Below, piece by piece: positions 4,580 through 53,778 of a DNA stretch of 64,000 nucleotides. The notes beneath the pieces were generated by a model, which ran no database searches, was not told the DNA's origin, and saw only the letters and a program-made list of their open reading frames with translations. Origin of the DNA: Lachnospiraceae bacterium (GTDB lineage: Bacteria; Bacillota; Clostridia; Oscillospirales; CAG-272); assembly GCA_024404495.1 (NCBI GenBank), contig JAKSPT010000002.1, positions 41,410 through 105,409 on the forward strand, given 5' to 3'. Numbering within the stretch: the first letter of the stretch is position 1; each line of letters begins with the position of its first letter. The position numbers and the translations under genes are program-made.

Positions 4580-4656
4580 GGCGGAATAGCTCAGTTGGCT
4601 AGAGCATTCGGTTCATACCCGACAGGTCGTTGGTTCAAATCCGACTTCCGCTACCA
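4580..4656 (+). tRNA. tRNA-Met (anticodon CAT); elongator, initiator or Ile2-lysidine identity not resolvable by eye
   Basis: Cloverleaf folded by hand: acceptor GGCGGAA/TTCCGCT, D arm GCTC-AGTTGGCTA-GAGC, anticodon loop TTCATAC, T arm GTTGG-TTCAAAT-CCGAC, encoded CCA. Confidence 0.8.
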
Positions 4657-4731
4657 GGCCCGTTGGTCAAGCGGTTAAGACACGGCCCTTTCACGGCTGT
4701 AACATGGGTTCGATTCCCGTACGGGTCACCA
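4657..4731 (+). tRNA. tRNA-Glu (anticodon TTC)
   Basis: Matches the classic Firmicutes tRNA-Glu: GGCCCGTTGGTCAAGCGGTTAAGACA...CCTTTCACGG...GGGTTCGATTCCCGTACGGGTCACCA; anticodon loop CTTTCAC; encoded CCA. Confidence 0.85.
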
Positions 4732-6290: not shown

Positions 6291-7199
6291 TCAGGTTTGT
6301 TTCCTGAGCGTTCCGGGCGGGACGCCGTAGAATTTGCGGAACAGCCTTGTGAAGTAACCGGGGTCCGAGAAGCCGACTGCGGCAGCAATCCCGGAGACGG
6401 TATCGGAGGTTGTGAGAAGAAGAGCCTGTGCCTTGGTCAGCCGGTATTCATTTACGTAGGTGACGGCAGTTCTTCCGGTGACTTCGCGGAACCGTCTGCA
6501 GAAATAGGAACTGTTCATACAGCAGGCGGAAGCAAGTGACGATAGGGGGATGTCCTCCGCGTAATGATCGGCGATATAGCGGAGTGCCGGGAGGACGTTT
6601 TCCTGGCTGCTGCTTTTTCTCTCGGCTTTTTCGGGAGACCGGAAGAACAGCGCGAGCAGCCGCAAAAGATTGCCCTTGACTGCAAGTTCAAAGCCTTCCC
6701 CGCCATCCCGGTAGGCGCCGATCAGCTCGTCAAGGATTTCGCGTGCCTGCGCTTTTCCCCCCTCGTCCTCCATTACGGTCTGAAAGCGGATCCGATGGGA
6801 GATCAGCGGCTCCATATATTTCTGCAGAATGATGTCGTCCCTGCCGCCGCACAGCTTCGTGTCGATCATCAGACAGTGGTACCTTGCGTCGGCGCAGCCG
6901 TCCGGCTCGATCGCGTGCGCCTCGCAGGGGTTGAAAACGGCAACCTCGCCCGCAGGGCAGCGGCGCCGTCGGAAATCGCTGACACAGATCAGGCTTCCTT
7001 CCTGAACATAAATGATCTCAAGCTGTTCGTGCCACGAAAATATCGGCACGGAGGAGGGAGGGGGCAGCGCAGAGGTCGTCATATCGCTGATAATATAAAA
7101 AGGAAAGGTTTCGTCGCTGAAGCGGATCGCTTCGTAGCTGCTTTCCAGCAGTGCTTCCGAATCGGAAAAGGAAGTCGATAATTCACGGAACTCTGCCAT
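6291..7199 (-). CDS. AraC-family transcriptional regulator (cupin sensor plus HTH)
   Basis: The C-terminus carries the AraC HTH signature (LSSLASACCMNSSYFCRRFREVTGRTAVTYVNEYRLTKAQALL...GFSDPGYFTRLFRKFYGVPPGTLR). Start trimmed to MAEFREL at 7199. Confidence 0.75.
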   Translation of the reverse strand: MAEFRELSTSFSDSEALLESSYEAIRFSDETFPFYIISDMTTSALPPPSSVPIFSWHEQLEIIYVQEGSLICVSDFRRRRCPAGEVAVFNPCEAHAIEPDGCADARYHCLMIDTKLCGGRDDIILQKYMEPLISHRIRFQTVMEDEGGKAQAREILDELIGAYRDGGEGFELAVKGNLLRLLALFFRSPEKAERKSSSQENVLPALRYIADHYAEDIPLSSLASACCMNSSYFCRRFREVTGRTAVTYVNEYRLTKAQALLLTTSDTVSGIAAAVGFSDPGYFTRLFRKFYGVPPGTLRKQT

Positions 7200-8444: not shown

Positions 8445-9179
8445 ATGAACGCAATGGAAACCTATCTCGGAATCATCCGGGATCTGATGGACGCGGTCGC
8501 CGAAAAGCGGTCGGACGCGATGGAAAAAGCGGCACGGCTGACGGCGGACGCGCTGATGAATGACGGATTCGTCTTTACCTTCGGGACGGGGCATTCCCAT
8601 ATCCTTGCCGAAGAGATCTTTTACCGTGCGGGAGGGCTGGCGCGCGTCTGTCCCATTCTGGAAGACGCGCTGATGCTTCATACTCACGCGGCGCGGAGCA
8701 GTATGTTAGAGCGCGCGCCCGGACTTGCCGCCCTGCTTCTCGACGATATCGACTGTGTGAAATACGGCGGCGTCCTCTTCCTCTTTTCCAACAGCGGCGG
8801 AAACACCGTCGCGGTCGATATGGCGGAGGAAGCAAAAAAACGCGGGCTGATACCGATCTGCATTACGAACGTCACGCACAGTCAGAAAATCACTTCCCGT
8901 CATCCCGAAGGGAAGAAGCTGATGGATGTCTGCGACGTGGTGATCGACAACATGGGCTGCTATGGAGACGCGGCGGTGGAGATCGGGGAAGTGACGACCG
9001 GCGCGACTTCGACCGTGATCGGTGCGATGATCATGCAGGCGATCGTCTGCCGCGCTATCGAGCTCTGCCGGGATGCCGGAAAAACGCCCGAGGTCTTCCA
9101 TTCCGCCAACACGAAGGGCGGAGACGAGGCGAACGAAGAATATATCCGGAAATACAAACCGCTCGTCAAGGCGCTCTGA
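8445..9179 (+). CDS. SIS-domain (sugar isomerase/phosphosugar-binding) protein
   Basis: FVFTFGTGHSHILAEE and FLFSNSGGN motifs typical of the SIS_2/UPF0309 family. Confidence 0.6.
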   Translation: MNAMETYLGIIRDLMDAVAEKRSDAMEKAARLTADALMNDGFVFTFGTGHSHILAEEIFYRAGGLARVCPILEDALMLHTHAARSSMLERAPGLAALLLDDIDCVKYGGVLFLFSNSGGNTVAVDMAEEAKKRGLIPICITNVTHSQKITSRHPEGKKLMDVCDVVIDNMGCYGDAAVEIGEVTTGATSTVIGAMIMQAIVCRAIELCRDAGKTPEVFHSANTKGGDEANEEYIRKYKPLVKAL

Positions 9180-9214
9180 TTACAACAAAAAATAATAATG
9201 GAGGAGATAGAAGT

Positions 9215-10405
9215 ATGCTGGCAATTCACGGCGGGGAACCGCTGAAAAAGGATGGATTTCCCGGTTGGCCCCGGACAGGAGAAATCGACCGGGAGATGCT
9301 TTCCCGTGCCGTTTCGGCGATGGGAAAAAGCAATTACCGCGCACAGTTTGAGGAGAGGTTTGCCCGGGACTGTGGCGTGAAGCATTGCTTTGCCGTGGCG
9401 AACGGGACCGTTTCGCTTGAAATGATTCTGCGGGCGATGGAAATCGGTTACGGAGACGAGGTCATTCTGCCCCCATACACTTTCGTTGCCACGCTCTCTT
9501 CGATCATCTTCGCGGGAGCCACTCCGGTTTTCGCGGATATTGATGAAGGAACTTATAATCTTTCTCACGAAACGCTCGAGGAAAAGATCACGCCGAAAAC
9601 GCGAGCCATTATCGCGGTCGCCGTCGCGGGCTGCCCGCCGAAGCTTGACGAGCTGAGCGCGATTGCGAAAAAGCACGGCGTAAAGCTGATCATCGACGCG
9701 GCGCAGGCGGTAGGCGCGGTGTGGAACGGAAAGAATATCTGCGCGTGGGGGGATGCCGCCTCGGTATCCTGCCAGAATTCCAAAAACCTGACCTGCGGCG
9801 AGGGCGGGATTATCACAACCGATGATGACGGTCTTGCCGAAAAGCTCACCCTGATTCTGCACGGAGGCAAAAAGGACGGCTGCTATATTTCAGCGGCACA
9901 GGATCACAATCTCAGCGAGTTGCAGGCGGCGGTTCTGCTTTCCCAGTATGAAAAACTGGAAGAGGAAATGTATCTGCGCGAGAAAAACGCGGCGTATCTT
10001 GCCGGGCGTCTGAAGGACCTTCCGTTTGCATCTCCCGCTGATTACGATCCGCGGATCGGCAGACACGCTTACCATCTGTTCCTCATCCGCCTCCGTTCGG
10101 AGGTCCTCGCCTCGCGCGGACTTGACAGGAACACCTTCCTGAACGCGCTCAACGCGGAGGGGATCCCGCTCTGCGCGGGTTACAGTCCGCTTTATGCGTT
10201 TCCGTGCGTGACTGCGCCGGAAACCGAGCGGATCATCGGCACGAAAATCGACGTGACGCCGCTTCCGAACGCGGAAAAAGCGGGGTATGAGGAGGGAACC
10301 TGGCTGTATCAGGCTTGCCTGCTCGGAACCCGGAAGGATATGGATGATATCGCAGACGCGATGCTGAAGGTCTGGGAGCACGCGGACGAGCTGAACGGCA
10401 AGTGA
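9215..10405 (+). CDS. DegT/DnrJ/EryC1/StrS-family PLP-dependent aminotransferase (amino-sugar)
   Basis: Fold-type I aminotransferase pattern with the conserved Lys region SCQNSKNLTCGEGG. Confidence 0.7.
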   Translation: MLAIHGGEPLKKDGFPGWPRTGEIDREMLSRAVSAMGKSNYRAQFEERFARDCGVKHCFAVANGTVSLEMILRAMEIGYGDEVILPPYTFVATLSSIIFAGATPVFADIDEGTYNLSHETLEEKITPKTRAIIAVAVAGCPPKLDELSAIAKKHGVKLIIDAAQAVGAVWNGKNICAWGDAASVSCQNSKNLTCGEGGIITTDDDGLAEKLTLILHGGKKDGCYISAAQDHNLSELQAAVLLSQYEKLEEEMYLREKNAAYLAGRLKDLPFASPADYDPRIGRHAYHLFLIRLRSEVLASRGLDRNTFLNALNAEGIPLCAGYSPLYAFPCVTAPETERIIGTKIDVTPLPNAEKAGYEEGTWLYQACLLGTRKDMDDIADAMLKVWEHADELNGK

Positions 10406-31435: not shown

Positions 31436-32566
31436 ATGAAAAAGGTTATTATCAACGAAAAACAGAAGGGCTTTCTTTTTAAGAACGGAAAATACGTCCG
31501 CACCGTCGGCGCGGGAAAATATCTCCTTTGGGGTGGGAAAACGGTCGAGGTCTCGGAGCTCGGAGGCGAGATCGTCTGCGCCGGGTGCCCGCTCGACGTA
31601 CTGCTGGAGGACGAGGCGTTCGCTTCGCAGGTCACGGTCGCCGAGGTCAACGACGAGGAGCTCGTTCTCCATTTCGTGAACGGGAGATTTGCGGGCGTCC
31701 TCCGCACGCGCGGAAAACACGCCTTCTGGAACGGAAAGGATGCTCACGAATTCCGTTCCGTGGACGTCTCCTCCCCCGAAGTCGGGGAAGACGTTCCGAG
31801 ATATCTGTTCGAGTCGCTTCATCCCTCGCTGTACGAGAGGATCGAGGTGGCGGAGTATCAGAGAGGGAGGCTGTTCCTCGATAACCGCTTCGTCCGCGTT
31901 CTCGAACCGGGGACCTATTATTTCTGGAGGACGGGCGTGAAGGTGGAGGTCAATACCGTCGATACCCGTCTGACGAAGATGGAGATCACCGGGCAGGAGA
32001 TCATGACGCAGGATAAGGTGGCGCTCCGCATCAATTTCGTCTGCAATTACCGCGTAACCGATTTCGTCCGGGTCCTGACCGAGATCGACAACTATGAGGA
32101 ACAGATGCACGTCGCGGCACAGCTTGCCCTTCGCGATTACGTCGGCAGATACAGGCTCGACGAGATCCTCGAAAACAAGGACGGTCTTTCCCGCTTCGTA
32201 TGCGAAAAGCTGAAGGAGAAGGAAAACGAGCTCTTCGTGGAGATCAAGGACGCCGGGGTCAAGGATATCATCCTTCCCGGCGAGATCCGCGATATCATGA
32301 ACACGGTCCTGCTCGCGGAAAAGAAGGCGCAGGCAAACGTCATCACCCGCCGCGAAGAGGTCGCCTCTACCCGTTCGCTTCTGAACACGGCGAAGCTGAT
32401 GGAGGAGAACCGTACGCTTTACAAGCTGAAGGAACTGGAATATGTGGAGCACATCTGCGAAAACGTCGGCAATATCACGCTGAACGGGAGCGGAGATATG
32501 CTCTCCCAGCTCCTCGGACTCATGAGGGGCGGAAAACAGACGGAAGAAGGGGATTTTGATGTTTGA
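31436..32566 (+). CDS. SPFH/band-7 (slipin/stomatin-like) domain protein
   Basis: Band-7 core pattern (EITGQEIMTQDKVALRINFVCNYRVTD...) followed by a coiled-coil; overlaps rtcB by 8 nt. Confidence 0.6.
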   Translation: MKKVIINEKQKGFLFKNGKYVRTVGAGKYLLWGGKTVEVSELGGEIVCAGCPLDVLLEDEAFASQVTVAEVNDEELVLHFVNGRFAGVLRTRGKHAFWNGKDAHEFRSVDVSSPEVGEDVPRYLFESLHPSLYERIEVAEYQRGRLFLDNRFVRVLEPGTYYFWRTGVKVEVNTVDTRLTKMEITGQEIMTQDKVALRINFVCNYRVTDFVRVLTEIDNYEEQMHVAAQLALRDYVGRYRLDEILENKDGLSRFVCEKLKEKENELFVEIKDAGVKDIILPGEIRDIMNTVLLAEKKAQANVITRREEVASTRSLLNTAKLMEENRTLYKLKELEYVEHICENVGNITLNGSGDMLSQLLGLMRGGKQTEEGDFDV

Positions 32567-33836
32567 CATACAGGGAAAAGTCACGACCGCCGTCTGCTAT
32601 GCGAAGGTGGTCGAGGACGCGGCGATCGAGCAGATCCGCAGAATGTGCGACTCCCCGCTGACCGAGAATGCCAAGGTCCGCGTCATGCCCGACGTTCACG
32701 CGGGCAAGGGCTGTACGATCGGGACGACGATGACGGTCACCGACCGGGCGTGCCCCAACGTGGTCGGGGTCGATATCGGGTGCGGGATGTACACCGTGAA
32801 ACTTGCCGACAGGGAGCTCGATTTTGAAAAGCTTGACGGGGCGTGCCATTTCATTCCCTCCGGAAAGAAGGTCTGGGAGGGAAGGATGGAGCGCTTCGAT
32901 CTGACCGGACTGCGCTGTTACCGTTCACTCCGCGACGCCAAACGGCTGGAGCGGTCGCTCGGTACGCTCGGCGGCGGGAACCACTTCATCGAGGTGGACA
33001 AAGCGGCGGACGGCACCTTTTATCTCGTCATCCATTCCGGAAGCCGGAACCTCGGCAAACAGGTCGCCGAGATCTATCAGCAGCTCGCGGTCGATCTGCA
33101 TTCCGGAAAAGAAGAGTACTTCAATAAGTGTGAGGAGATCATCCGTACCTACAAGGAGCAGGGAAGGCGCGCAGAGATTCAGGATACGCTGAAGGCGCTC
33201 AAAAAGGAATTCAAGTCAAAGGATCCCGACGTCCCCGAGGACCTCTGTTGGCTTTACGGCACTTATCTTGACGACTACCTTCACGACGTGGAGATCTGTC
33301 AGGCATTTGCCCGCAGAAGCCGCGAGCGGATGGCGGAAATCATTCTCGAAAGGACCGGAATGACCGCCGTCGAGTCCTTCCATACCGTTCACAACTACAT
33401 AGACACCGGGGAAAGGATCCTCCGCAAGGGCGCGATCGCAGCGCACGCGGGCGAGAAGGTCCTCATCCCGATCAATATGCGCGACGGTTCGGTCATCGCG
33501 ACCGGACGCGGCAATCCCGAGTGGAACTTTTCCGCTCCCCACGGCGCGGGGCGCGTGATGTCGAGAGCCACGGCGAAGGAAACGCTCGATATGGAGACCT
33601 ACCGCGCGGCGATGGAGGGAATCTATACGACTTCCGTTAATCCCGATACGATCGACGAGGCGCCGATGGCGTATAAATCGCTTGAGGACATCATCGACGT
33701 GATCCGCGATACCGTGGACGTGATCGAGGTCATGAAGCCGGTCTACAACTTCAAGGCATCCGGAAACGGCACCCCGTGGGAGAACGGGAAAGAAGACCCG
33801 AGCGGGGATGACGGCGCGCAGAACGAGGCGGAATAA
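32559..33836 (+). CDS. rtcB: RtcB-family RNA ligase (3'-phosphate/5'-OH RNA-splicing ligase), short 425-aa form
   Basis: RtcB metal- and GTP-binding motifs (VMPDVHAGKGCTIG, GGGNHFIE, APHGAGR); ATG at 32559 (the ORF track's 32556 is a TTG). Confidence 0.8.
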   Translation: MFDIQGKVTTAVCYAKVVEDAAIEQIRRMCDSPLTENAKVRVMPDVHAGKGCTIGTTMTVTDRACPNVVGVDIGCGMYTVKLADRELDFEKLDGACHFIPSGKKVWEGRMERFDLTGLRCYRSLRDAKRLERSLGTLGGGNHFIEVDKAADGTFYLVIHSGSRNLGKQVAEIYQQLAVDLHSGKEEYFNKCEEIIRTYKEQGRRAEIQDTLKALKKEFKSKDPDVPEDLCWLYGTYLDDYLHDVEICQAFARRSRERMAEIILERTGMTAVESFHTVHNYIDTGERILRKGAIAAHAGEKVLIPINMRDGSVIATGRGNPEWNFSAPHGAGRVMSRATAKETLDMETYRAAMEGIYTTSVNPDTIDEAPMAYKSLEDIIDVIRDTVDVIEVMKPVYNFKASGNGTPWENGKEDPSGDDGAQNEAE

Positions 33837-36467: not shown

Positions 36468-37289
36468 TTGAAATCGTTCAAAATCGGACAAAGTATTGAA
36501 AAAAGCCTGTACCCGATCGAAAGCAGACTGGAAGAAATGAACCGGGAAAGAAAAGAAGGAGAGAGAAAGCTCGCGGAGATCTGCGTCCCTGCTCTCGTTT
36601 CCGCGCTTCTGACCGCCGCCGTTTCCGACCGGCTGCTGTACGTCGATCCCATCAAGCCGTCGCTTGCGTTTAATTGGTACGAGAAGATCGTTTCCAACGG
36701 CTTCGGTATGATCGCCGTTTATCTTCTGACCTTTGCGGTGATCGCGCTTGCCGTTTTCGGCGTCATCCGGCTGATCCGCTTCTTCCTCGAAAAAAAGAGC
36801 GGAACGAAAGCCGCGCCCGCGAAAGACGAATACGCGGACAGATTCTATAAGATCATCATCCCGGAGATCATCACCGGAAGCGGAATGTTCGAGAAGGCGT
36901 ACGAGATCGAATGCGGAAACGTTGACGCCGAGGAGCTGACAGAAGGCGCGTCTGCTGCCGCGATGAACGCGGAGAATATCCGTCTGGAGGAGATCCCGAC
37001 GAAGGATATCAACCGCAAGGCGATGCTGTATTATTACGAGGCGCTTTATCATTTCCGCTCGATCATCCCCGAGCTTGAAACGATCATCTATTCCGAAGAC
37101 GCCCTGAACGCCGATCCCGTCGAGCGTTACCGCCGTATCGGGCAGGACGCCGTGACGGATGCGCTCCTCATCTGCCGCCACTGCGTGAACGAGATCTGCA
37201 AGCGCACCGAGGACGCGCACGAGGAGGAGATCATCGAGGCTTACGGCGACTACCTCCGCAAGGTCAGCGAGGTACAGTTCGACCGCTGA
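36468..37289 (+). CDS. Hypothetical membrane protein (273 aa), TTG start
   Basis: GGAGGA RBS 8 nt before the TTG; two TM helices; the C-terminal ~105 aa are duplicated immediately downstream. Confidence 0.5.
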   Translation: MKSFKIGQSIEKSLYPIESRLEEMNRERKEGERKLAEICVPALVSALLTAAVSDRLLYVDPIKPSLAFNWYEKIVSNGFGMIAVYLLTFAVIALAVFGVIRLIRFFLEKKSGTKAAPAKDEYADRFYKIIIPEIITGSGMFEKAYEIECGNVDAEELTEGASAAAMNAENIRLEEIPTKDINRKAMLYYYEALYHFRSIIPELETIIYSEDALNADPVERYRRIGQDAVTDALLICRHCVNEICKRTEDAHEEEIIEAYGDYLRKVSEVQFDR

Positions 37290-37630
37290 CAGACGGCGCG
37301 TCTGCTGCCGCGATGAACGCGGAGGACATCCGGCTGGAGGAGATCCCGACGAAGGATATCAACCGCAAGGCGATGTTGTATTATTACGAGGCGCTTTATC
37401 ACTTCCGCTCGATCATCCCCGATTTTGAAACGATCATCTTTTCGGAGGATGCCGACGACGCCGATCCGGTCGAGCGTTACCGCCGTATCGGGCAGGACGC
37501 CGTGATGACCGCGCTTCTCGCCTGCCGCCACTGCGTGAACGAGATCTGCAAGCGCACCGAGGACGCGCACGAGGAGGACGTGATCGCCGCCTACGGCGAG
37601 TTCCTGCGCACGGTCAGCGAGAAAAAATAA
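36946..37630 (+). repeat. Tandem direct duplication (~340 bp x2, ~90% identity)
   Basis: 36946-37289 versus 37290-37630 (gcgtctgctgccgcgatgaacgcggag...cgcaccgaggacgcgcacgaggagga repeated). Confidence 0.85.
37313..37630 (+). CDS. Duplicated C-terminal module (105 aa) of the upstream gene; independent small gene or gene fragment
   Basis: ~88% amino-acid identity to residues 169-273 of the 36468-37289 product (MNAEDIRLEEIPTKDINRKAMLYYYEALYHFRSIIP...). Confidence 0.4.
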   Translation: MNAEDIRLEEIPTKDINRKAMLYYYEALYHFRSIIPDFETIIFSEDADDADPVERYRRIGQDAVMTALLACRHCVNEICKRTEDAHEEDVIAAYGEFLRTVSEKK

Positions 37631-37791
37631 AAAGCATAAATATTAGCGCGGGAAAAAGATAAAGCGGTGTACAACCCAGTGAAGTGCTATGCGGCGAATG
37701 ATGTTTGATAAGTCAGAACCGGAAAAGCAATGGCATTATACTGATTTGTATACCGCCTTTTCGTTTTGTAAAAAAGAAAGCGCTCGAAATT

Positions 37792-40700
37792 ATGGAAAAA
37801 CAAACAATACAAAAAGAGATTACACGTTTGAAAGAAAAACAGATTTCGCCTTTGGATATTTCTGAAGAAGATAAGTATAATCCGATTCTCGCAAAATATG
37901 AAAGAGAAAGCGGACTTCTTTTGACCGATCGTAGAGGTTTTGATATTATTTCTAACCGGTTCTTTGTTGAAGAACGAATATCGAAAGTGATGCCTCCCTC
38001 CGCTGATTGCTTTCAAGTGGATAATAAATATTTTGATTCGTTTGATGAGTATTATGAGTACCTGAACGGATCGGTATATGACGAATCCTGTTATTCCTTT
38101 TGCCCGGAGGATAAGCTGATTTCAAAATATGAAATCGACAAAGAAAGACTTTTTTCCAAAAAGGCATTTACCACTGAAACGATAGACGAGTATCTTTCAT
38201 TGATTACAGATGCCGAGATGAGCGAATATCGGGAAAGAGAAAAAACTCATAAATTGTGTTGTAATTGGAGAAAAAAGTATCTGAATTGTCACAGCGGAAA
38301 AGACTTGATTGGTCTGATTGATAAGTACAGTCATTCTGTAATCGCAGACACAATGGATTATCAGTTCTTTTTGTCTTGCTATCTGACAGAGTTTTCTCGG
38401 GAAAAATTCTGTTTTGATTCGATAATAGAACTGATGGCTTCTGATATCTATTTGGATAATAGTTTTCTGTCAAGCTTATGCGTTATTTTTGATCCTGAGA
38501 TTATTCTTGATGCCTTAAAGCGATTTCCGCATTCCTATGGGATTAAAAAAATCAGAAAAATTTATCGAGATATTAAGCACAAGATTGGGGACGAAAAGCC
38601 TGTTTTCTATGTGCGTGGGAAATTTGATCCGGCTACACATTTCTTCTGCGAGGAGATATCAGAGTATTCAGGCAATAAATGGGTCGCAACATTTAACAGA
38701 TATTTTGAATCGTTTGAGGATTTTGCAACATACCGTAAAGGCAATCTCAGACATTGTGATTTTTCAAAGTGTCTGGAAAATATGGATAATATCGATTATT
38801 CCGGATATATGATTGATGAAACCACCGTATTGCCACTGCTTTCATATCATAAATGTCGCTATGAAATAAGCAAAAGATACCGGAAGAATGAATTTCTGGT
38901 ATCCATTCGTTGGTATGATACCAATGAGAATGAAGTTAAAACCGTCAAAAAAAGCTTTCAATATTTTTTTGATTTCGTTTCGTTTTTGAAAAACGATTTA
39001 TCTGATGCCTATTTGATTTCCTGCGACGGCTTACAGAATCTCGAGAGCGGTTCGGACATTGATTTTACGGGTGTAAGATTAACAAGCAATCTTTGCAAAA
39101 AGATGCATATCAAATATGAGCCCTGCTCGCTTTTGCTTGGTAGCGCATGGAGTTTTGCGGAAACAGAACGAAATGAAAAAGAAACAGAACTGATTTTATC
39201 TGAAAGCAGAGAAATCGTAAGTTCTCACGAAGATAAAAGTTTGTTGGGCTTCACGGATTACGACAGTCATTGTCAAAGAGTTCATTATATTTCCGATCTT
39301 CATTTGATGCATAAAATAATGAATGCCGGATGCGTCACCGAAAACGACGTGTTTTATGTGATTGATAAAATTGCCAGAACAATCGCCGAAGAAGCAGAGT
39401 CTCTTTTGTTGATTGCCGGAGATGTGTCCTCTGATTTCAACATTTTTCGCTTGTTTGTGAAATGTCTATCAGCGGCGAAAAGTTCGCAGTGTGTCGTTGT
39501 TTTTACTCTCGGAAATCATGATTTGTGGGGTATTGGAGGAAAAACCTTTTCGGAAATAACAGGAATATATCGTGAGCTAATAGAAAAGCACGGTATGTAT
39601 CTGCTTCAAAACGGTATTCTGTATCGGAATGACTATAGGATATGGGAGAATCCGTCAGCAAGCGTAAGAACGATACCATACGAAGATCTTTGCAGAAAAA
39701 CAGATAAACAGTTAACAGATGATTTGAGAAAGGCGCGATATGTGATTTTTGGCGGTCTGGGTTTTTCCGGACAGAATGAAATCTTCAATGCAAATCAAGG
39801 AATATATCTGGATGTGGTGACAAGAGAGGAAGAAATCAAAGAATCGGAAAAATTTGCTCATTTATATGACCGGTTGCTTCCCATCCTGACTACGAAAAAC
39901 GCCATAATAATGACGCATACCCCGAAAAGCGATTGGAGCGAAAACGGCGACTGCGATGATAATCTGGTATTTGTAAACGGACACACTCATAAAAATCAGT
40001 TTTATGATGACGGGTGCTATCGCCTTTATGCGGACAATCAGATTGGTTACAGCAATAAAAATCCTCATTTGAAATCATTATTGCTGGATGGCGATTATGA
40101 TTGTTTTTCGGACTATGATGACGGAATTTATTCGATTACCAGGGAACAGTATTGTGATTTCTATCGCGGAAAAAACATAATGATGACGTTTACGCGAGAT
40201 TACCCGATTACGATGTTGAAAAAAAGAGGGTATTACTGCTTTTTGGTTCAAACGAAGAAGGGCGTCTTGTCGATATTGAACGGCGGAAGTATGAAACCTC
40301 TTCCCGGAAATAGCGTTCAGTATTTCTATGATAATATGGGTTCTGTAATTGCCAATATAAATACCCCGCTTATGAAATACACAGAATATCAAAAAGTAGT
40401 CGCGGATGAAATAAAAAAGATCGGCGGCGACGGGACGATCCACGGGTGCATTGTGGATATTGACAAGTGTAATCATATTTATGTAAACCCTATAGATAAA
40501 AAGCTGACGGCATATTATGCTCCAAAAGATATAATCGACAAAACAGTATACCCATCCATTGTTTCTTTATTGGAAGAACAATGCCCTAAACTGTATCAAA
40601 TATATGAACGTTTAATGCTGGCAGAAGGACAACCAAATGCACTAATACAACAGCAAAATGGTTCGACCAAACCAACAAAATATTTGAGTACGGATATCTA

Positions 40701-40842
40701 TGAAGCGTCACGTGTCATAAAAAAGATGCAGAAAATTCATTCCAATATTTTGAGCATTTGGGCTGAAACTTCTGATGAAATTATCGACCTTACGAAAACA
40801 AATGCGATTCCAAGCGAGTATGAATGGTTGTTGCAAAACTAA
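37792..40842 (+). CDS. Large (1016 aa) protein with a C-terminal calcineurin-like metallophosphoesterase domain, on an AT-rich island
   Basis: MPP motifs in order: HYISDLHL, IAGDVSSD, LGNHD, GGLGFSG, MTHTP, NGHTH. N-terminal ~500 aa without recognisable motifs. Start trimmed to MEKQTIQ at 37792. Codon usage and GC differ clearly from neighbours. Confidence 0.6.
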   Translation: MEKQTIQKEITRLKEKQISPLDISEEDKYNPILAKYERESGLLLTDRRGFDIISNRFFVEERISKVMPPSADCFQVDNKYFDSFDEYYEYLNGSVYDESCYSFCPEDKLISKYEIDKERLFSKKAFTTETIDEYLSLITDAEMSEYREREKTHKLCCNWRKKYLNCHSGKDLIGLIDKYSHSVIADTMDYQFFLSCYLTEFSREKFCFDSIIELMASDIYLDNSFLSSLCVIFDPEIILDALKRFPHSYGIKKIRKIYRDIKHKIGDEKPVFYVRGKFDPATHFFCEEISEYSGNKWVATFNRYFESFEDFATYRKGNLRHCDFSKCLENMDNIDYSGYMIDETTVLPLLSYHKCRYEISKRYRKNEFLVSIRWYDTNENEVKTVKKSFQYFFDFVSFLKNDLSDAYLISCDGLQNLESGSDIDFTGVRLTSNLCKKMHIKYEPCSLLLGSAWSFAETERNEKETELILSESREIVSSHEDKSLLGFTDYDSHCQRVHYISDLHLMHKIMNAGCVTENDVFYVIDKIARTIAEEAESLLLIAGDVSSDFNIFRLFVKCLSAAKSSQCVVVFTLGNHDLWGIGGKTFSEITGIYRELIEKHGMYLLQNGILYRNDYRIWENPSASVRTIPYEDLCRKTDKQLTDDLRKARYVIFGGLGFSGQNEIFNANQGIYLDVVTREEEIKESEKFAHLYDRLLPILTTKNAIIMTHTPKSDWSENGDCDDNLVFVNGHTHKNQFYDDGCYRLYADNQIGYSNKNPHLKSLLLDGDYDCFSDYDDGIYSITREQYCDFYRGKNIMMTFTRDYPITMLKKRGYYCFLVQTKKGVLSILNGGSMKPLPGNSVQYFYDNMGSVIANINTPLMKYTEYQKVVADEIKKIGGDGTIHGCIVDIDKCNHIYVNPIDKKLTAYYAPKDIIDKTVYPSIVSLLEEQCPKLYQIYERLMLAEGQPNALIQQQNGSTKPTKYLSTDIYEASRVIKKMQKIHSNILSIWAETSDEIIDLTKTNAIPSEYEWLLQN

Positions 40843-40887
40843 AACAGAATGTTTTTACGGGTTTTCAAACAATCCTCGTCTATCGAA

Positions 40888-40925
40888 TAAAAGAAAAGCG
40901 CGGATACCGTGAGGTGTCCGCGCTT
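40888..40925. terminator. Bidirectional terminator between the island gene and aroA
   Basis: aaagcgcggatacc-gtgag-gtgtccgcgcttt flanked by A/T runs. Confidence 0.65.
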
Positions 40926-40929
40926 TGAT

Positions 40930-42156
40930 TTACAGGAGAGAAGCGGAAAGTCCGAGCGTTTTCAGCGTGTCATAATAGGCGGGAAAGCTCTTGTTCACCG
41001 CCTCCGCGCCGTCAAGAACGCCGCCGAAGCGGGAAAGGATGACCGAAAGCGCCATGACGATCCGGTGATCGTTATGGGAGGATAGGGGAACGGAGGGGGC
41101 GCGGAGCTGACCGCCGGGGACGGTGACGCTGTCCTTTCCGACCGAAAGCGTCACGCCGCACTTTTTCAGCTCTTCCTCCATCGCCGCGACGCGGTCGCAT
41201 TCTTTCAGCCGGAGTCTTTCGGTGTGAACGAACCGCGCGCCGTGTTCCGAAGCCGCGGCGGCAAACAGAACGGGACCGAGGTCGGGGCAGTCGGCAAGGT
41301 CGATTTCCGGCGTGCCACTCCGGAGCGCCTCAAGGTGTCTGACGGCGATCTTATCTCCCTGCAGGCTGTCCGGATCAAGTCCGATGACGGTAACGTCCGG
41401 TCCGAGAGCGAGCAGAGCGGCGGCGTTCGACCAGTCGCCCTCGACGGTAAACGACGACGGACGGCAGGTCTGATCGCCGGGAACGGAATACGAATATTGC
41501 CCGTTCCGTTCGATCCGGATGCCGAAAGCCCGCAGAACGGAGAGGGTCATTTCAATATAGGGGGCGCTCGTGACGGGGGGCAGAACGGTCAGTGTGCTGT
41601 CTCCGTGCAGAAGCGGCAGAGCAAGGAGCAGCCCCGACGCGAACTGGCTGCTTTCTGCGCCGGAAATGACGAAATTCCCCGGGCGGAGTCCCCCGCATAC
41701 GGTCAGGGAACGTGCCGAGCGGGAAAAGGTCAGTCCCTGCTCCGCGGCGATCTTTTCATATACGCCGAGCGGGCGGGAAAGGAGCCGCTCCGTGCCGGTA
41801 AACACGGTTTTTCCCTTCAGCGACATGGCGAGCGGGATCAGAAAACGCAGGGTGCTGCCCGACTCGTAACAGTCGAGGGGAAGAGACGGAAGATCGAATT
41901 TCCGTCCGGACCCGCGGACAACGCTCCGGTCAAAGCCCCGTACCGTAGCCGTCCCGTCTTCGGAGACGTTGATCCCCGTGCCGAGCGTGCGCAGACAGGT
42001 CAGCTCTGCGGCGATATCGTCGGACTCCGAAATTCCTCCGATCCTGCTTTCCCCGTCGGCAAGCGCCGCGCAGATCAGACAGCGGTGCGCATAGCTTTTG
42101 GAGGGCGGCGCGGAAACGGTTCCGGACGCGCGGGAGGGTTGGAAAACGACGTTCAT
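40930..42156 (-). CDS. aroA: 3-phosphoshikimate 1-carboxyvinyltransferase (EPSP synthase)
   Basis: N-terminus ...SGTVSAPPSKSYAHRCLICAALADGESRI and the overall EPSP synthase pattern. Confidence 0.85.
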   Translation of the reverse strand: MNVVFQPSRASGTVSAPPSKSYAHRCLICAALADGESRIGGISESDDIAAELTCLRTLGTGINVSEDGTATVRGFDRSVVRGSGRKFDLPSLPLDCYESGSTLRFLIPLAMSLKGKTVFTGTERLLSRPLGVYEKIAAEQGLTFSRSARSLTVCGGLRPGNFVISGAESSQFASGLLLALPLLHGDSTLTVLPPVTSAPYIEMTLSVLRAFGIRIERNGQYSYSVPGDQTCRPSSFTVEGDWSNAAALLALGPDVTVIGLDPDSLQGDKIAVRHLEALRSGTPEIDLADCPDLGPVLFAAAASEHGARFVHTERLRLKECDRVAAMEEELKKCGVTLSVGKDSVTVPGGQLRAPSVPLSSHNDHRIVMALSVILSRFGGVLDGAEAVNKSFPAYYDTLKTLGLSASLL

Positions 42157-50946: not shown

Positions 50947-51091
50947 CGGTTACTCCTTTTCATTATATAGCGGTGTGGAAAAAAGGATACTATAGGAATT
51001 TTATCACGGATGGAGGGAAATGTCAAGGGAGAAAAAAACGAGAACCGCTTGCGGTTGGCGGTTCTCGAGCTGCCGTACGGCAGCGCTTGTT

Positions 51092-51328
51092 TCATTTCTT
51101 TTCGGGGATTTCTTTTTCGTTCTTGCAATAGGGGCATTCGATCATATGATAGCCGCAGATACGGTACGCTTTTTCCTGCGCCTCTGCGGCAGGAAGAGGG
51201 TGTCCGCCGTCCATTTCGCGGTCAATGATGCTATCAAACTTTTCTTGATCATTGGGAACCTTGATTTGTTTGGTGTCTTGACAATAGGAACAGTTGTAAT
51301 TCATAAGAGAGATTCCTTTCAGCGTCAT
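51092..51328 (-). CDS. Small zinc-ribbon protein (two CxxC pairs)
   Basis: 78-aa ORF (MNYNCSYCQD...ECPYCKNE) with a downstream hairpin-plus-T terminator (rc of 51036-51068). Confidence 0.4.
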   Translation of the reverse strand: MTLKGISLMNYNCSYCQDTKQIKVPNDQEKFDSIIDREMDGGHPLPAAEAQEKAYRICGYHMIECPYCKNEKEIPEKK

Positions 51329-51599
51329 TTTGTGATAATCGGTTGTTAACCGCTTATCAGTATTATACTGCTTTTTCGTTTCGGCGTCAAGAAGCCGGAA
51401 CCGAATACCGGGAGACGGGAATCCCGAAAACGATCATGGATCCCTTGCTTCCCGACCGCATCGTGACCGTCAGTCACGACCGGTTTTCACAGCATTTCGA
51501 AATGAACAGACCGCTTCAGAAGCGGTGAACCGGGAAATAACGGTTGACATTTTTTGGCGGAAGTGCTATGATAAAAACAAAGAATGAGAGGATCTCTGC

Positions 51600-52625
51600 A
51601 TGAAGGAAATCACCGAATATTTATTGAAGAATGCGTCAATCAAGACGAATATCATTTCCGGGGATCGGCTGAAAGACGATAGTAAGCTTTGTATGAAATA
51701 TATTATCGAAGACGCTTTCAAACTCGGAAAGAATGGTATTGATTGCAAATATTATGACGCCGTGGTGCAGGGAGAGGGAAAAGAAAAGGATAAGATCAAC
51801 TCCCTTTACTCCAGCTCGCTTCAGTCTCTGCTTGTGTTTTGCGGGGTAAGCGCGGACAATCCGATCACCGTTGATGGAATCGAATACACGAAAGTCATGT
51901 TTGAATACAAAAACAAGGTGATCGGGTATCCGTCTTCCGTTGACGTTGTTTTGATGTCAAAGGACGAAAAGAAAGTGCTGTTTATCGAGTCCAAGCTATA
52001 CGAGATTGTTCGGGATTCTGATAAAGAAGGCAAATGTGAAGTCGGTCCGTCATATCTGTCAACTGACGAAAACGGGTATAAAAAGCTGGGTTTGTGTCAG
52101 GACGATCTGACAGAAATCGGAATAGACTTAAAGGACACCGGAATTTTCGGAACGAAAAACCCTTCCGATATGAAGAAGCATATATTAGGTTCATCAAATC
52201 AACCGACAAGAGACGGGAACGGATGGGTCAGAATAAAACCGATAAAGGGAAACGAGTATGTTTATTCGTACGGGATCAAGCAGTATTTAAGTCATATCAT
52301 CGGGATCATGAATTATAAAACCCCGGATACTAATTGCTCGACGGGATTAAAGGATCGGCTTTTTTCCAAAATCGGTTTCCTGATTCTGTATAATGACCTG
52401 CCCGGTTATACGAAGGAGGACGCAAAAGAAAAAATCAAATCTTTCAAGAAACATTGCGAGACGGTTAAAGGCGTTCTGGAGAAAAAGGCGATTCATGTGG
52501 ACGGAATCCCGATTGACATATCGATGGAATCCTATCAGAAATTGGCAGAGGAAGCAAAGCCATATTTTGATAAAATGCCTGCAACGGTCAAAGAGTATTA
52601 CCATCTTAACGAAAGAGAAACCTGA
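51600..52625 (+). CDS. Hypothetical protein with a PD-(D/E)xK nuclease-like motif, in an AT-rich islet
   Basis: Beta-strand pair ...SSVDVVLMSKDEKKVLFIESKLYE fits the (P)D...(D/E)xK core; low-GC, Lys-rich composition unlike its neighbours. Confidence 0.45.
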   Translation: MKEITEYLLKNASIKTNIISGDRLKDDSKLCMKYIIEDAFKLGKNGIDCKYYDAVVQGEGKEKDKINSLYSSSLQSLLVFCGVSADNPITVDGIEYTKVMFEYKNKVIGYPSSVDVVLMSKDEKKVLFIESKLYEIVRDSDKEGKCEVGPSYLSTDENGYKKLGLCQDDLTEIGIDLKDTGIFGTKNPSDMKKHILGSSNQPTRDGNGWVRIKPIKGNEYVYSYGIKQYLSHIIGIMNYKTPDTNCSTGLKDRLFSKIGFLILYNDLPGYTKEDAKEKIKSFKKHCETVKGVLEKKAIHVDGIPIDISMESYQKLAEEAKPYFDKMPATVKEYYHLNERET

Positions 52626-52668
52626 ACGAAAATACAATTCAAAACAATCTTTGAAGGGAGCAAACACT

Positions 52669-53778
52669 ATGAAGAAACTGTTATCGCTCGTTCTCAGCAT
52701 TCTTCTTCTTTCCGCATCCTTGATCCCGCTCGCGTCGTGCGATCAAAGCGGAAAACCGGGAGAAACGACCGCGCCGGAGGGCACCGGAGCCGAAGCGACC
52801 GGGGCGGACGCGACCGAGCCCGAAACGGAAAAGCCGGAGGAAAAAGGAATGGAACTGATCCCCGATCTGAAATTTGAAAAAGGGCTCGAGCTGCTCAGTC
52901 AGAAGGACCACGCAAACGGCGACGCGATCAAAACGCTCGGTACGCACAGCTTTTACGCCGATAAAACGGCGGAGAACCCGGTCTGGCGTCTGGCACAGTG
53001 GGATTCCGGTCCCTGCCTGATCGAAAACCGGGTGGATCGGGGCGTTTCCGAGATCACCGACGGCGCGTACCGCAGTTTTTCCTATCTGCCCGCAAAAAAC
53101 GAGATGACCTTCTTCCTCGACACCTCGCTTTATTATCAGGGCAAGCCCGCGAAGCAGGGCGACTACTGGCCGCATCTGCTGATCGAGGAAGGCGACTTCG
53201 GCTATCAGTCCCTGCCTGCAGAAACGAAGGCGTATTATTCCTGCGGAGCCGAAAAGCTGGTCTTTTCGATGGATGTGAGAATGGACGAATACGACCTGAC
53301 CAAGATCACGGGCGACTGGGTGCGCGCGGCGCAGTTCCTTGTCTATTTCTACGTCAAGGGGATCGAAAGCAATGATTTCTGCTGGTTCGGCGTGCAGATC
53401 TTCGACAACCGTTCCGAGCTGAGCGACAACTACATCGGTTATGACGGCGGCAAGCCGGATGCCTCCTCCGCGATGATCTACTCGATCGGCAGGAAGAACG
53501 TCTATCCGTCGGCAGACGAGGGCGGCTGCCCCTTCTGGTACGAGGGCAAGCCCCTCGCAAGCGATGACTGGATGCACGTCGAGATTGATCTGAAACCGTA
53601 TCTCGAAGATATGCTGAACGTCGGAAAGAAAAACGGCTATTTCAAGGTCGATTCGCTCGATGATCTCTGCATCAATGGGATGAACATCGGTTGGGAAACG
53701 ATCGGCACCTTCTGCCACTCCATGTCGGTGAAGGATATGTCGCTCCGCTCCTATCTCGAAAGCGACCTTGCCGAATAA
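52669..53778 (+). CDS. Lipoprotein of unknown function
   Basis: Lipobox LLLSASLIPLASC; GAAGGGAG RBS; start trimmed from the ORF-track 52393. Confidence 0.55.
   Translation: MKKLLSLVLSILLLSASLIPLASCDQSGKPGETTAPEGTGAEATGADATEPETEKPEEKGMELIPDLKFEKGLELLSQKDHANGDAIKTLGTHSFYADKTAENPVWRLAQWDSGPCLIENRVDRGVSEITDGAYRSFSYLPAKNEMTFFLDTSLYYQGKPAKQGDYWPHLLIEEGDFGYQSLPAETKAYYSCGAEKLVFSMDVRMDEYDLTKITGDWVRAAQFLVYFYVKGIESNDFCWFGVQIFDNRSELSDNYIGYDGGKPDASSAMIYSIGRKNVYPSADEGGCPFWYEGKPLASDDWMHVEIDLKPYLEDMLNVGKKNGYFKVDSLDDLCINGMNIGWETIGTFCHSMSVKDMSLRSYLESDLAE

Follow-up and report, generated by a model that had tools for sequence, protein, structure and literature searches.

An AT-rich one-gene cassette next to aroA encodes a large multi-domain metallophosphoesterase of a mobile gene family with a possible role in bacterial defence

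Introduction

Calcineurin-like phosphoesterase domains have been described as immune effectors of bacteria. Such a domain is the immune effector domain of the PUA-Calcineurin-CE-HAD (Metis) anti-phage system, and bNACHT fusions also use a calcineurin-like effector domain. In this study, we analysed a 64-kb stretch of genomic DNA labelled Lachnospiraceae (the window; all positions below without a contig name refer to it), in which an AT-rich island located between the gene for a rare membrane protein and aroA carries a single gene (37792-40842, + strand). Its product is a 1016-amino-acid (aa) soluble protein of an uncharacterised metallophosphoesterase family. The stretch had been noticed earlier for its composition and read as a recent horizontal acquisition. 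As an island it proved to be ordinary, and the interest of the locus lies in the protein, which combines a core from a known effector superfamily with two undescribed accessory domains. Judging from sequence and predicted structure, a stand-alone anti-phage or anti-mobile-element sensor-effector is the most likely role for this protein, a view in which our confidence is evenly balanced.

Results

A metallophosphoesterase core between two accessory regions

The open reading frame (ORF) of the island gene spans 37705-40842, with the true start at the ATG at 37792 (1016 aa), and the same start was called in the relative on metagenome contig L089 (see below). Database protein P0001, from a 'Lachnospiraceae' metagenome-assembled genome (GCA_024500545.1), matches it at 100% identity along its entire length. 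The sole domain found by Pfam was Metallophos (PF00149), at residues 496-734, covering profile positions 2-190 of 191; the score of 31.6 bits, above the gathering cut-off of 21.5, places the protein in this family. In an alignment of 40 homologues, the motifs DxH, GD, GNH(D/E), H, and GHxH of the calcineurin-like metallophosphoesterase core (aa 494-750; 39271-40041, + strand) were conserved, and all metal-binding motifs were invariant (D502, H504, G543, D544, G574, N575, H576, H709, G730, H731, and H733). Inserted between motifs III and IV of the core is a conserved segment, GGLGFSG.N..FNAN.GIY. The phosphoesterase core is predicted to be catalytically competent.

The AlphaFold model built from the 40-homologue alignment, which is a confident one (predicted local distance difference test, pLDDT, 83.5; predicted template modelling score, pTM, 0.73), adopts the metallophosphoesterase beta-sandwich fold and divides the protein into three parts, with a disordered linker at residues 474-491. 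The N-terminal region (aa 1-480; 37792-39231, + strand), which was delimited from the structure model, the repeats, synonymous divergence, and variant N-termini of homologues, comprises three repeats of a module made of a three-stranded sheet and a helix (approximately aa 40-105, 268-330, and 353-415) arranged around a helical insert, and the repeats share a recurring sequence type, YF(E/D)SF(E/D)EF..Y..GDL. No other part of the protein varies as much, and some homologues have a different sequence in place of this region. The C-terminal module (aa 751-1000; 40042-40791, + strand) was modelled as an alpha/beta structure with a 35-residue helix, and its 250 residues hold a dense set of invariant positions in the alignment as well as the motif IGGxGxIHGxI(I/V)DID..NH(I/L)YVNPxD. 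The ratio of nonsynonymous to synonymous divergence (dN/dS) between the window and L089 was approximately 0.2 in every domain, and the island gene is under purifying selection and appears to be functional.

Narrower functional assignments were tried and rejected. For an Mre11/SbcD nuclease, the NCBIfam model TIGR00619 (sbcd) scored 22.6 bits against a cut-off of 77.65, the match was confined to the first 80 residues of the domain, and no Rad50/SbcC ATPase was found as a neighbour in the window or in the homologue contexts read. An RNA-repair enzyme (Pnkp/Hen1 or Tpt1-linked) had been suggested by an RtcB gene 4 kb upstream of the island and by a precomputed Tpt1 Pfam tag on homologue P0065. 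This candidate was ruled out, as P0065 has only 65 residues outside the shared region, the island protein has no kinase or ligase domain, and the RtcB gene is native in composition and four genes apart from the island.

Composition and history of the locus

The earlier note had described a sharp drop in GC content from about 37640 to about 40900, one large gene within it, a tandem duplication at its left boundary, and a bidirectional terminator before aroA, and all of these features were confirmed, the coordinates of the duplication being slightly shifted (36935-37284 and 37285-37621, instead of 36946-37630). In 400-bp windows, GC was 0.345-0.405 across 37600-40999 and 0.51-0.66 on both sides, and the AT-rich stretch was placed at bases 37622-40890 (approximately 3.3 kb; 35-40% GC, compared with approximately 58% around it). 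This dip is the deepest in the 64 kb, the sole other one (0.45-0.46) lying at 51-53 kb. The GC content of the island gene is 0.372, compared with 0.580 for the remaining window, and GC at third codon positions (GC3) is 0.376 in the island gene, 0.729 in aroA, and 0.741 in the gene to the left of the island (36468-37289). The non-coding leader (37622-37791, + strand), which presumably contains the promoter and the 5' untranslated region and is conserved in the related contigs L089, L187, and L188, is likewise AT-rich.

The two-way intrinsic terminator hairpin at 40895-40926, common to the island gene and aroA and kept in L187 and L089, folds strongly on both strands (-28.1 kcal/mol with z -5.9 on the + strand; -21.9 kcal/mol with z -4.9 on the - strand) and is flanked by U-tracts on both sides; a simple terminator consensus scan did not list it. 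The island and its vicinity had no match in Rfam. Mobility genes, attachment sites, and flanking direct repeats were not found at the locus: the scanned neighbours lack a recombinase, the repeats of the duplication are not arranged around the island, and tRNA genes come no nearer than 33 kb. A relaxase, a replication initiator, or a recombinase next to the gene is absent from the window and was seen only around homologues that are 47% identical to the window protein.

GTDB representative genomes contained no relative of the left flanking gene and no close genome for synteny, the best matches to aroA being 53-54% identical, and comparison of the locus rests on three short metagenome contigs, L089, L187, and L188. 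L089 covers the same locus from duplication copy 2 across the island and into aroA, at an identity of 88.8%. Between it and the window, synonymous divergence was 0.31 for the island and 0.46 for the 3' end of aroA, and within the island gene it was uneven, from 0.87 at residues 1-130 to 0.11 in the catalytic core. L187, which was found via the flanking gene, contains a single-copy flanking gene ending in SEKK*, followed by the leader and the first 100 codons of the island gene, after which the sequence resumes directly at the final bases of the gene and continues into the terminator and aroA (L187 positions 1450-1760 correspond to 37792-38092 joined to 40828). It thus carries a 2.7-kb internal deletion that leaves a 100-codon ORF. 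The deletion derives from an L089-type allele, with 98.4% identity on the left side and 91.7% on the right (aroA end), a difference that suggests a further recombination mosaic.

L188 also contains a single-copy flanking gene. Over 656 nt that take in copy 2 and the start of the island, its identity to the window is 98.6% (99.1% for the leader including the first codons), yet this falls to 69% in the 5' portion of the flanking gene, upstream of which L188 has a different gene (a LOR-domain gene). The switch to near-identity is located approximately 35 nt inside copy 2 (from about 37320). This jump from 99% to 69% identity points to recent allele exchange between backgrounds; of the island gene itself, the L188 contig covers the first 170 bp.

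No empty site was found among these relatives: each of the three has either the island or what a deletion left of it at this position. As all relatives found hold the island or a remnant there and synonymous divergence is similar in the island and aroA, the island would be an old resident of a small clade. Accordingly, the claim of recent horizontal acquisition stood in part: the foreign composition, the mobile family (see below), and the recent exchange with L188 agree with it, whereas a simple new insertion between native genes does not fit relatives that all have the island or its remnant in place. Conservation of the gene at this position and with the same composition in all relatives, which the earlier note had named as evidence against its reading, was partly found, in L089, L187, and L188. 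Taken together, these comparisons suggest that a small clade has long had the cassette between aroA and the gene for the rare membrane protein, that at least two alleles circulate, and that recombination has recently carried alleles from one background to another, the partial duplication and the 13-nt filler of the window (see below) probably coinciding with the left edge of the exchanged tract.

Homologues, their architectures, and their carriers

A word-indexed search returned 123 clusters at 90% identity, nearly all of approximately 1000 aa and mostly unnamed, and an exhaustive profile search recovered 1690 cluster representatives (50% identity) at E<1e-3, including 1049 at E<1e-30. The full architecture is present in most family members, the core and the C-terminal module forming the constant unit. 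Variant forms of approximately 800 aa have a different, short N-terminus, one variant carries N-terminal DUF4116 repeats, and some variants have an added C-terminal CapR/treble-clef zinc finger. The C-terminal module was also found in a 569-aa protein encoded on Limosilactobacillus reuteri plasmid pAN417A, in which it follows a PDC-S61 domain. The N-terminal domain of the plasmid protein generated a full-length match to PDC-S61 (7e-81) and a match to a DRT-associated PD-(D/E)XK nuclease model, and its C-terminal module shares 30% identity with that of the island protein over approximately 230 residues, with the motif kept. The neighbours of the pAN417A gene are a restriction-modification gene, integrases, and a MazF toxin. 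When the C-terminal region from L. reuteri served as the query, only one relative was recovered.

The 92 loci of homologues represented 60 unrelated flank contexts, and the neighbours, where genes were called, were usually housekeeping genes that differed each time. At the 71 loci with enough flank, homologue GC was approximately 31% irrespective of host GC (25-68%): it was below that of the flanks in 68 of the 71, and the regression of gene GC on host GC had a slope of 0.17. In another count, 63 of 67 homologues were richer in AT than the sequence on either side. One distant homologue is compositionally native in a host with approximately 25% GC, which points to a low-GC origin of the gene. 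Seventeen loci formed a cluster sharing a unit of approximately 6.6 kb, which consists of a MobV relaxase gene, RepA_N, Cys_rich_VLP, an XRE regulator, the homologue, and a GC-rich hairpin tail. Elements in Pusillibacter, Subdoligranulum, and Campylobacter records match the backbone and tail of this unit at 84-85% identity; their cargo is an alpha/beta hydrolase gene and the aminoglycoside-resistance gene aadE, with a serine recombinase at one end in Pusillibacter. One subgroup of the family evidently occupies the cargo slot of a serine-recombinase/MobV mobilizable element. At L007, which has a unit of this type, the gene is split by an insertion sequence. The family had no match in 50,697 phage genomes. 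In IMG/VR, eight contigs contained a relative; four of the matches (L091, L093, L094, and L098) begin within approximately 1.7 kb of a contig end, and in the one contig compared with the phage collection the match to known phages spans just 116 bases. By its distribution over hosts and carriers, the gene family is a mobile one.

Further features were observed around individual homologues. The GC-rich non-coding tail downstream of the cargo gene is conserved (L106 13000-13352; also L007, L101, L103, and L120) and contains two tandem hairpins, ..CACACTACACTTTGC..GCAAAGTCGTGTG.. and CCAAAGGG..CCCTTTGG. Similarity to L106 ends at the same point (+3352) in 10 of the 16 other loci of the cluster, and the tail could be the end of the element or a transfer-related site; in Rfam it generated only a sub-threshold match, to Clostridiales-2. 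At L004, the AT-rich leader of the homologue borders on two consecutive MatE fragments (149 and 102 aa; 6370-7097), which suggests that a transporter gene was disrupted near the insertion. At L099, 49 bp separate the homologue from the end of an upstream IS200/IS605-type Y1 transposase gene (9167-9952), which is possibly another vehicle for the homologue.

Flanking genes and other features of the window

The gene to the left of the island (36468-37289, + strand; from the ORF list) is of native composition and encodes a 273-aa protein with one transmembrane segment, a hydrophobic stretch near residue 82. The protein matched nothing in Pfam or PADLOC and is very rare, with six homologues among 5.8 billion proteins. 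The last 350 bp of this gene form copy 1 of the tandem duplication (period 350; 91% identity between copies). As delimited by repeat search and five-way alignment, copy 1 (36935-37284, + strand) includes a 13-nt filler at 37272-37284 (GTACAGTTCGACC), which ends this copy, is absent from copy 2, and supplies the new gene end VQFDR*. Copy 2 (37285-37621, + strand) holds an intact 105-aa ORF (37313-37630) ending in SEKK*, as do the single-copy flanking genes of L187 and L188. Because this ORF is intact and its dN/dS against the L089 copy is 0.11, copy 2 is not a decaying scar. The cytosolic C-terminal domain of the flanking protein is thereby present twice, the second time as a separate ORF under purifying selection.

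On the right, aroA (EPSP synthase; 40930-42156, - strand; Pfam PF00275, E 1.4e-64) is the first gene of a native aro cluster of aroA, aroQ, aroE/K, and aroC. On the left are two genes without family assignment, a rhodanese gene, a PEMT/ICMT-like methyltransferase gene, and the gene for the RNA ligase RtcB (32556-33836); the last is of native composition, and no link between it and the island was found. The best GTDB matches to aroA came from Ruminococcus and Oscillospiraceae-type metagenome-assembled genomes, not Lachnospiraceae, and the label 'Lachnospiraceae' may be imprecise for what is a poorly sampled lineage. The only RNA genes detected in the window were adjacent tRNA-Met and tRNA-Glu genes (4580-4731). 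The second, milder GC dip (51000-53000; 0.45-0.46, compared with approximately 0.58) contains two ORFs without a Pfam family (51600-52625 and 52393-53778) and may be another acquired patch.

Discussion

The AT-rich stretch is a horizontally exchanged one-gene accessory cassette, and its product a cytoplasmic single chain composed of variable N-terminal repeats, a phosphoesterase core, and a conserved C-terminal module. In the defence reading that we favour, the N-terminal region, possibly together with the C-terminal module, would detect an infection cue, and detection would release the phosphoesterase, which would then cleave nucleic acid or a nucleotide and so stop the invader or the infected cell. 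We infer the defence role, the division of labour between the domains, and the substrate from several features of the gene and its relatives. It is a solitary, compositionally foreign, and patchily distributed gene that is found in the cargo slot of a mobile element; variable modular ends surround a conserved catalytic unit; the gene is dispensable, as indicated by the 2.7-kb internal deletion in L187; and the C-terminal module recurs in a PDC-S61-type candidate defence nuclease. Genes matching the PADLOC candidates PDC-S50 (Schlafen AlbA_2), PDC-S42, PDC-M04A, and PDC-S31 enclose one homologue, with serine recombinases bracketing the group. A scan of the 150 nearest neighbours in 44 contexts generated strong matches to AbiU (5e-152), a DRT-associated helicase (1.5e-146), and PtuA (9e-116), as well as to PD-T7-3, PDC-M13A/B, PDC-M10A, AriA, AbiLi, and MADS proteins.

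Several results weigh against a defence role. The neighbour scan had no matched control and included generic helix-turn-helix and helicase models, so that its GajB match could be UvrD/PcrA, and most homologues are solitary among housekeeping genes, outside defence islands. The core is structurally closest to Mycobacterium tuberculosis PptH (6unc) and to generic phosphodiesterases, not to nucleases specifically, and a profile search of PDB sequences likewise returned one marginal match, PptH. No solved structure was found as a counterpart of the C-terminal module, which was modelled alone, or of the N-terminal region, which was covered by the whole-protein search only. NCBIfam and PHROGs generated weak generic phosphoesterase matches and no family for the whole protein, and none of the 5027 models of PADLOC-DB v2.0.0 matched it at E<=1.

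A wider proposal, which we offer tentatively and regard as somewhat more doubtful than probable, is that the family constitutes a new and widespread single-chain immune class of gut Firmicutes. In this class, two undescribed domains would control a metallophosphoesterase effector: a sensor made of the three N-terminal repeats, and the C-terminal module, which is also a partner of PD-(D/E)XK nucleases. The GC content of approximately 31% in hosts of up to 68% GC would be kept by constant lateral flux or by selection, not by chance.

The alternative that survives best is an accessory metabolic or nucleic-acid-processing phosphoesterase that confers a benefit in the gut niche and has no role in immunity, for instance in scavenging nucleotides or phosphodiesters, in healing RNA ends, or in removing a phosphopantetheinyl-type group. 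We consider it unlikely, though a serious contender. Its AT-richness would then merely reflect an origin in low-GC Firmicutes, with which the distant homologue native to a host of approximately 25% GC is consistent, and the prevalence of housekeeping contexts suits such an enzyme, as does the cargo slot that elsewhere holds a resistance gene, a generic adaptive trait. However, approximately 750 non-catalytic residues and swapped N-termini would be unusual in a metabolic enzyme, and no conserved partner gene or pathway context accompanies the gene. The sharing of the C-terminal module with a candidate defence nuclease, the strong defence neighbours in several contexts, and the loss of the gene by deletion in one lineage also speak against this reading.

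The protein could instead serve the mobile elements themselves as a counter-defence or establishment factor, that is, as a phosphodiesterase that destroys the signalling nucleotides of host immunity or processes DNA ends. One report (PMC12287305) describes phage phosphoesterases that aid evasion of bacterial immunity, and the presence of homologues as cargo of a mobilizable element and on eight viral contigs of IMG/VR would agree with such a function. Nevertheless, we judge it quite improbable, given that the phage genomes searched contain no member of the family, that half of the IMG/VR matches begin near a contig end, and that the contig compared has hardly any sequence of known phages. In the window and at most other loci, moreover, the gene is chromosomal with no surrounding element. 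The anti-defence enzymes Acb1 and Apyc1 are small single-domain proteins, unlike the 1000-residue multi-domain island protein.

Very improbable, in our view, is a selfish addiction or toxin-like gene that persists because its loss is costly or because it spreads itself, with no benefit to the host: the solitary gene does occur at very many sites, at most of which a recombinase is lacking, and keeps its AT-rich composition in any host, but it has no conserved antitoxin-like partner, L187 has lost it by a clean deletion, an insertion sequence interrupts the homologue at L007, and no match to a DNA-mobilising nuclease or recombinase family was detected. That the gene is not foreign at all and its low GC is native, for example owing to amino-acid composition, is hardly credible despite its presence at the same site in every relative found, considering its GC3 (0.38, compared with 0.73-0.74 in the neighbour genes), the AT-rich non-coding leader, the homologues in 60 contexts and on a mobile element, and the lateral exchange indicated by the jump from 99% to 69% identity against L188.

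If the defence reading is correct, the island protein belongs to an uncatalogued single-gene immune family of more than 1000 clusters at 50% identity that is common in human-gut Clostridia, with a type of effector (a metallophosphoesterase) and two accessory domains that have received little attention in bacterial immunity; if it is wrong, the gene is a plain AT-rich accessory enzyme gene. The locus is also a natural example of the spread of a gene without a recombinase of its own, the cassette being seen as the cargo of a mobilizable element that bears antibiotic resistance in other records, as a bare gene recombined between related chromosomes, as a copy with a partial tandem duplication at its left, and as a deleted remnant, four forms in all.

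Compared with the serine-recombinase/MobV elements, the window lacks their backbone and has only the gene with 170 bp upstream and approximately 50 bp downstream, and the window protein is only 47% identical to the copies carried as their cargo. Within the PF00149 superfamily, to which PptH (6unc), Mre11/SbcD, and Lmo2642 belong, the core accounts for only approximately 250 of the 1016 residues of the island protein, the approximately 480 N-terminal and 270 C-terminal residues being without counterpart, and the protein scores far under the cut-offs of the SbcD and acc_ester models of NCBIfam. PDC-S61 of PADLOC is a candidate system, not a validated one, and the one paper to mention it does no more than list it; the island protein has no PDC-S61 match and carries a metallophosphoesterase where the pAN417A protein has a PD-(D/E)XK nuclease. 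As for Metis and the bNACHT fusions, Pfam found no PUA, HAD, or NACHT/STAND NTPase domain in the island protein, whose flanking domains are different and whose hosts are gut Clostridia. What these systems provide is a precedent for immune proteins of bacteria in which the catalytic component is a calcineurin-like phosphoesterase.

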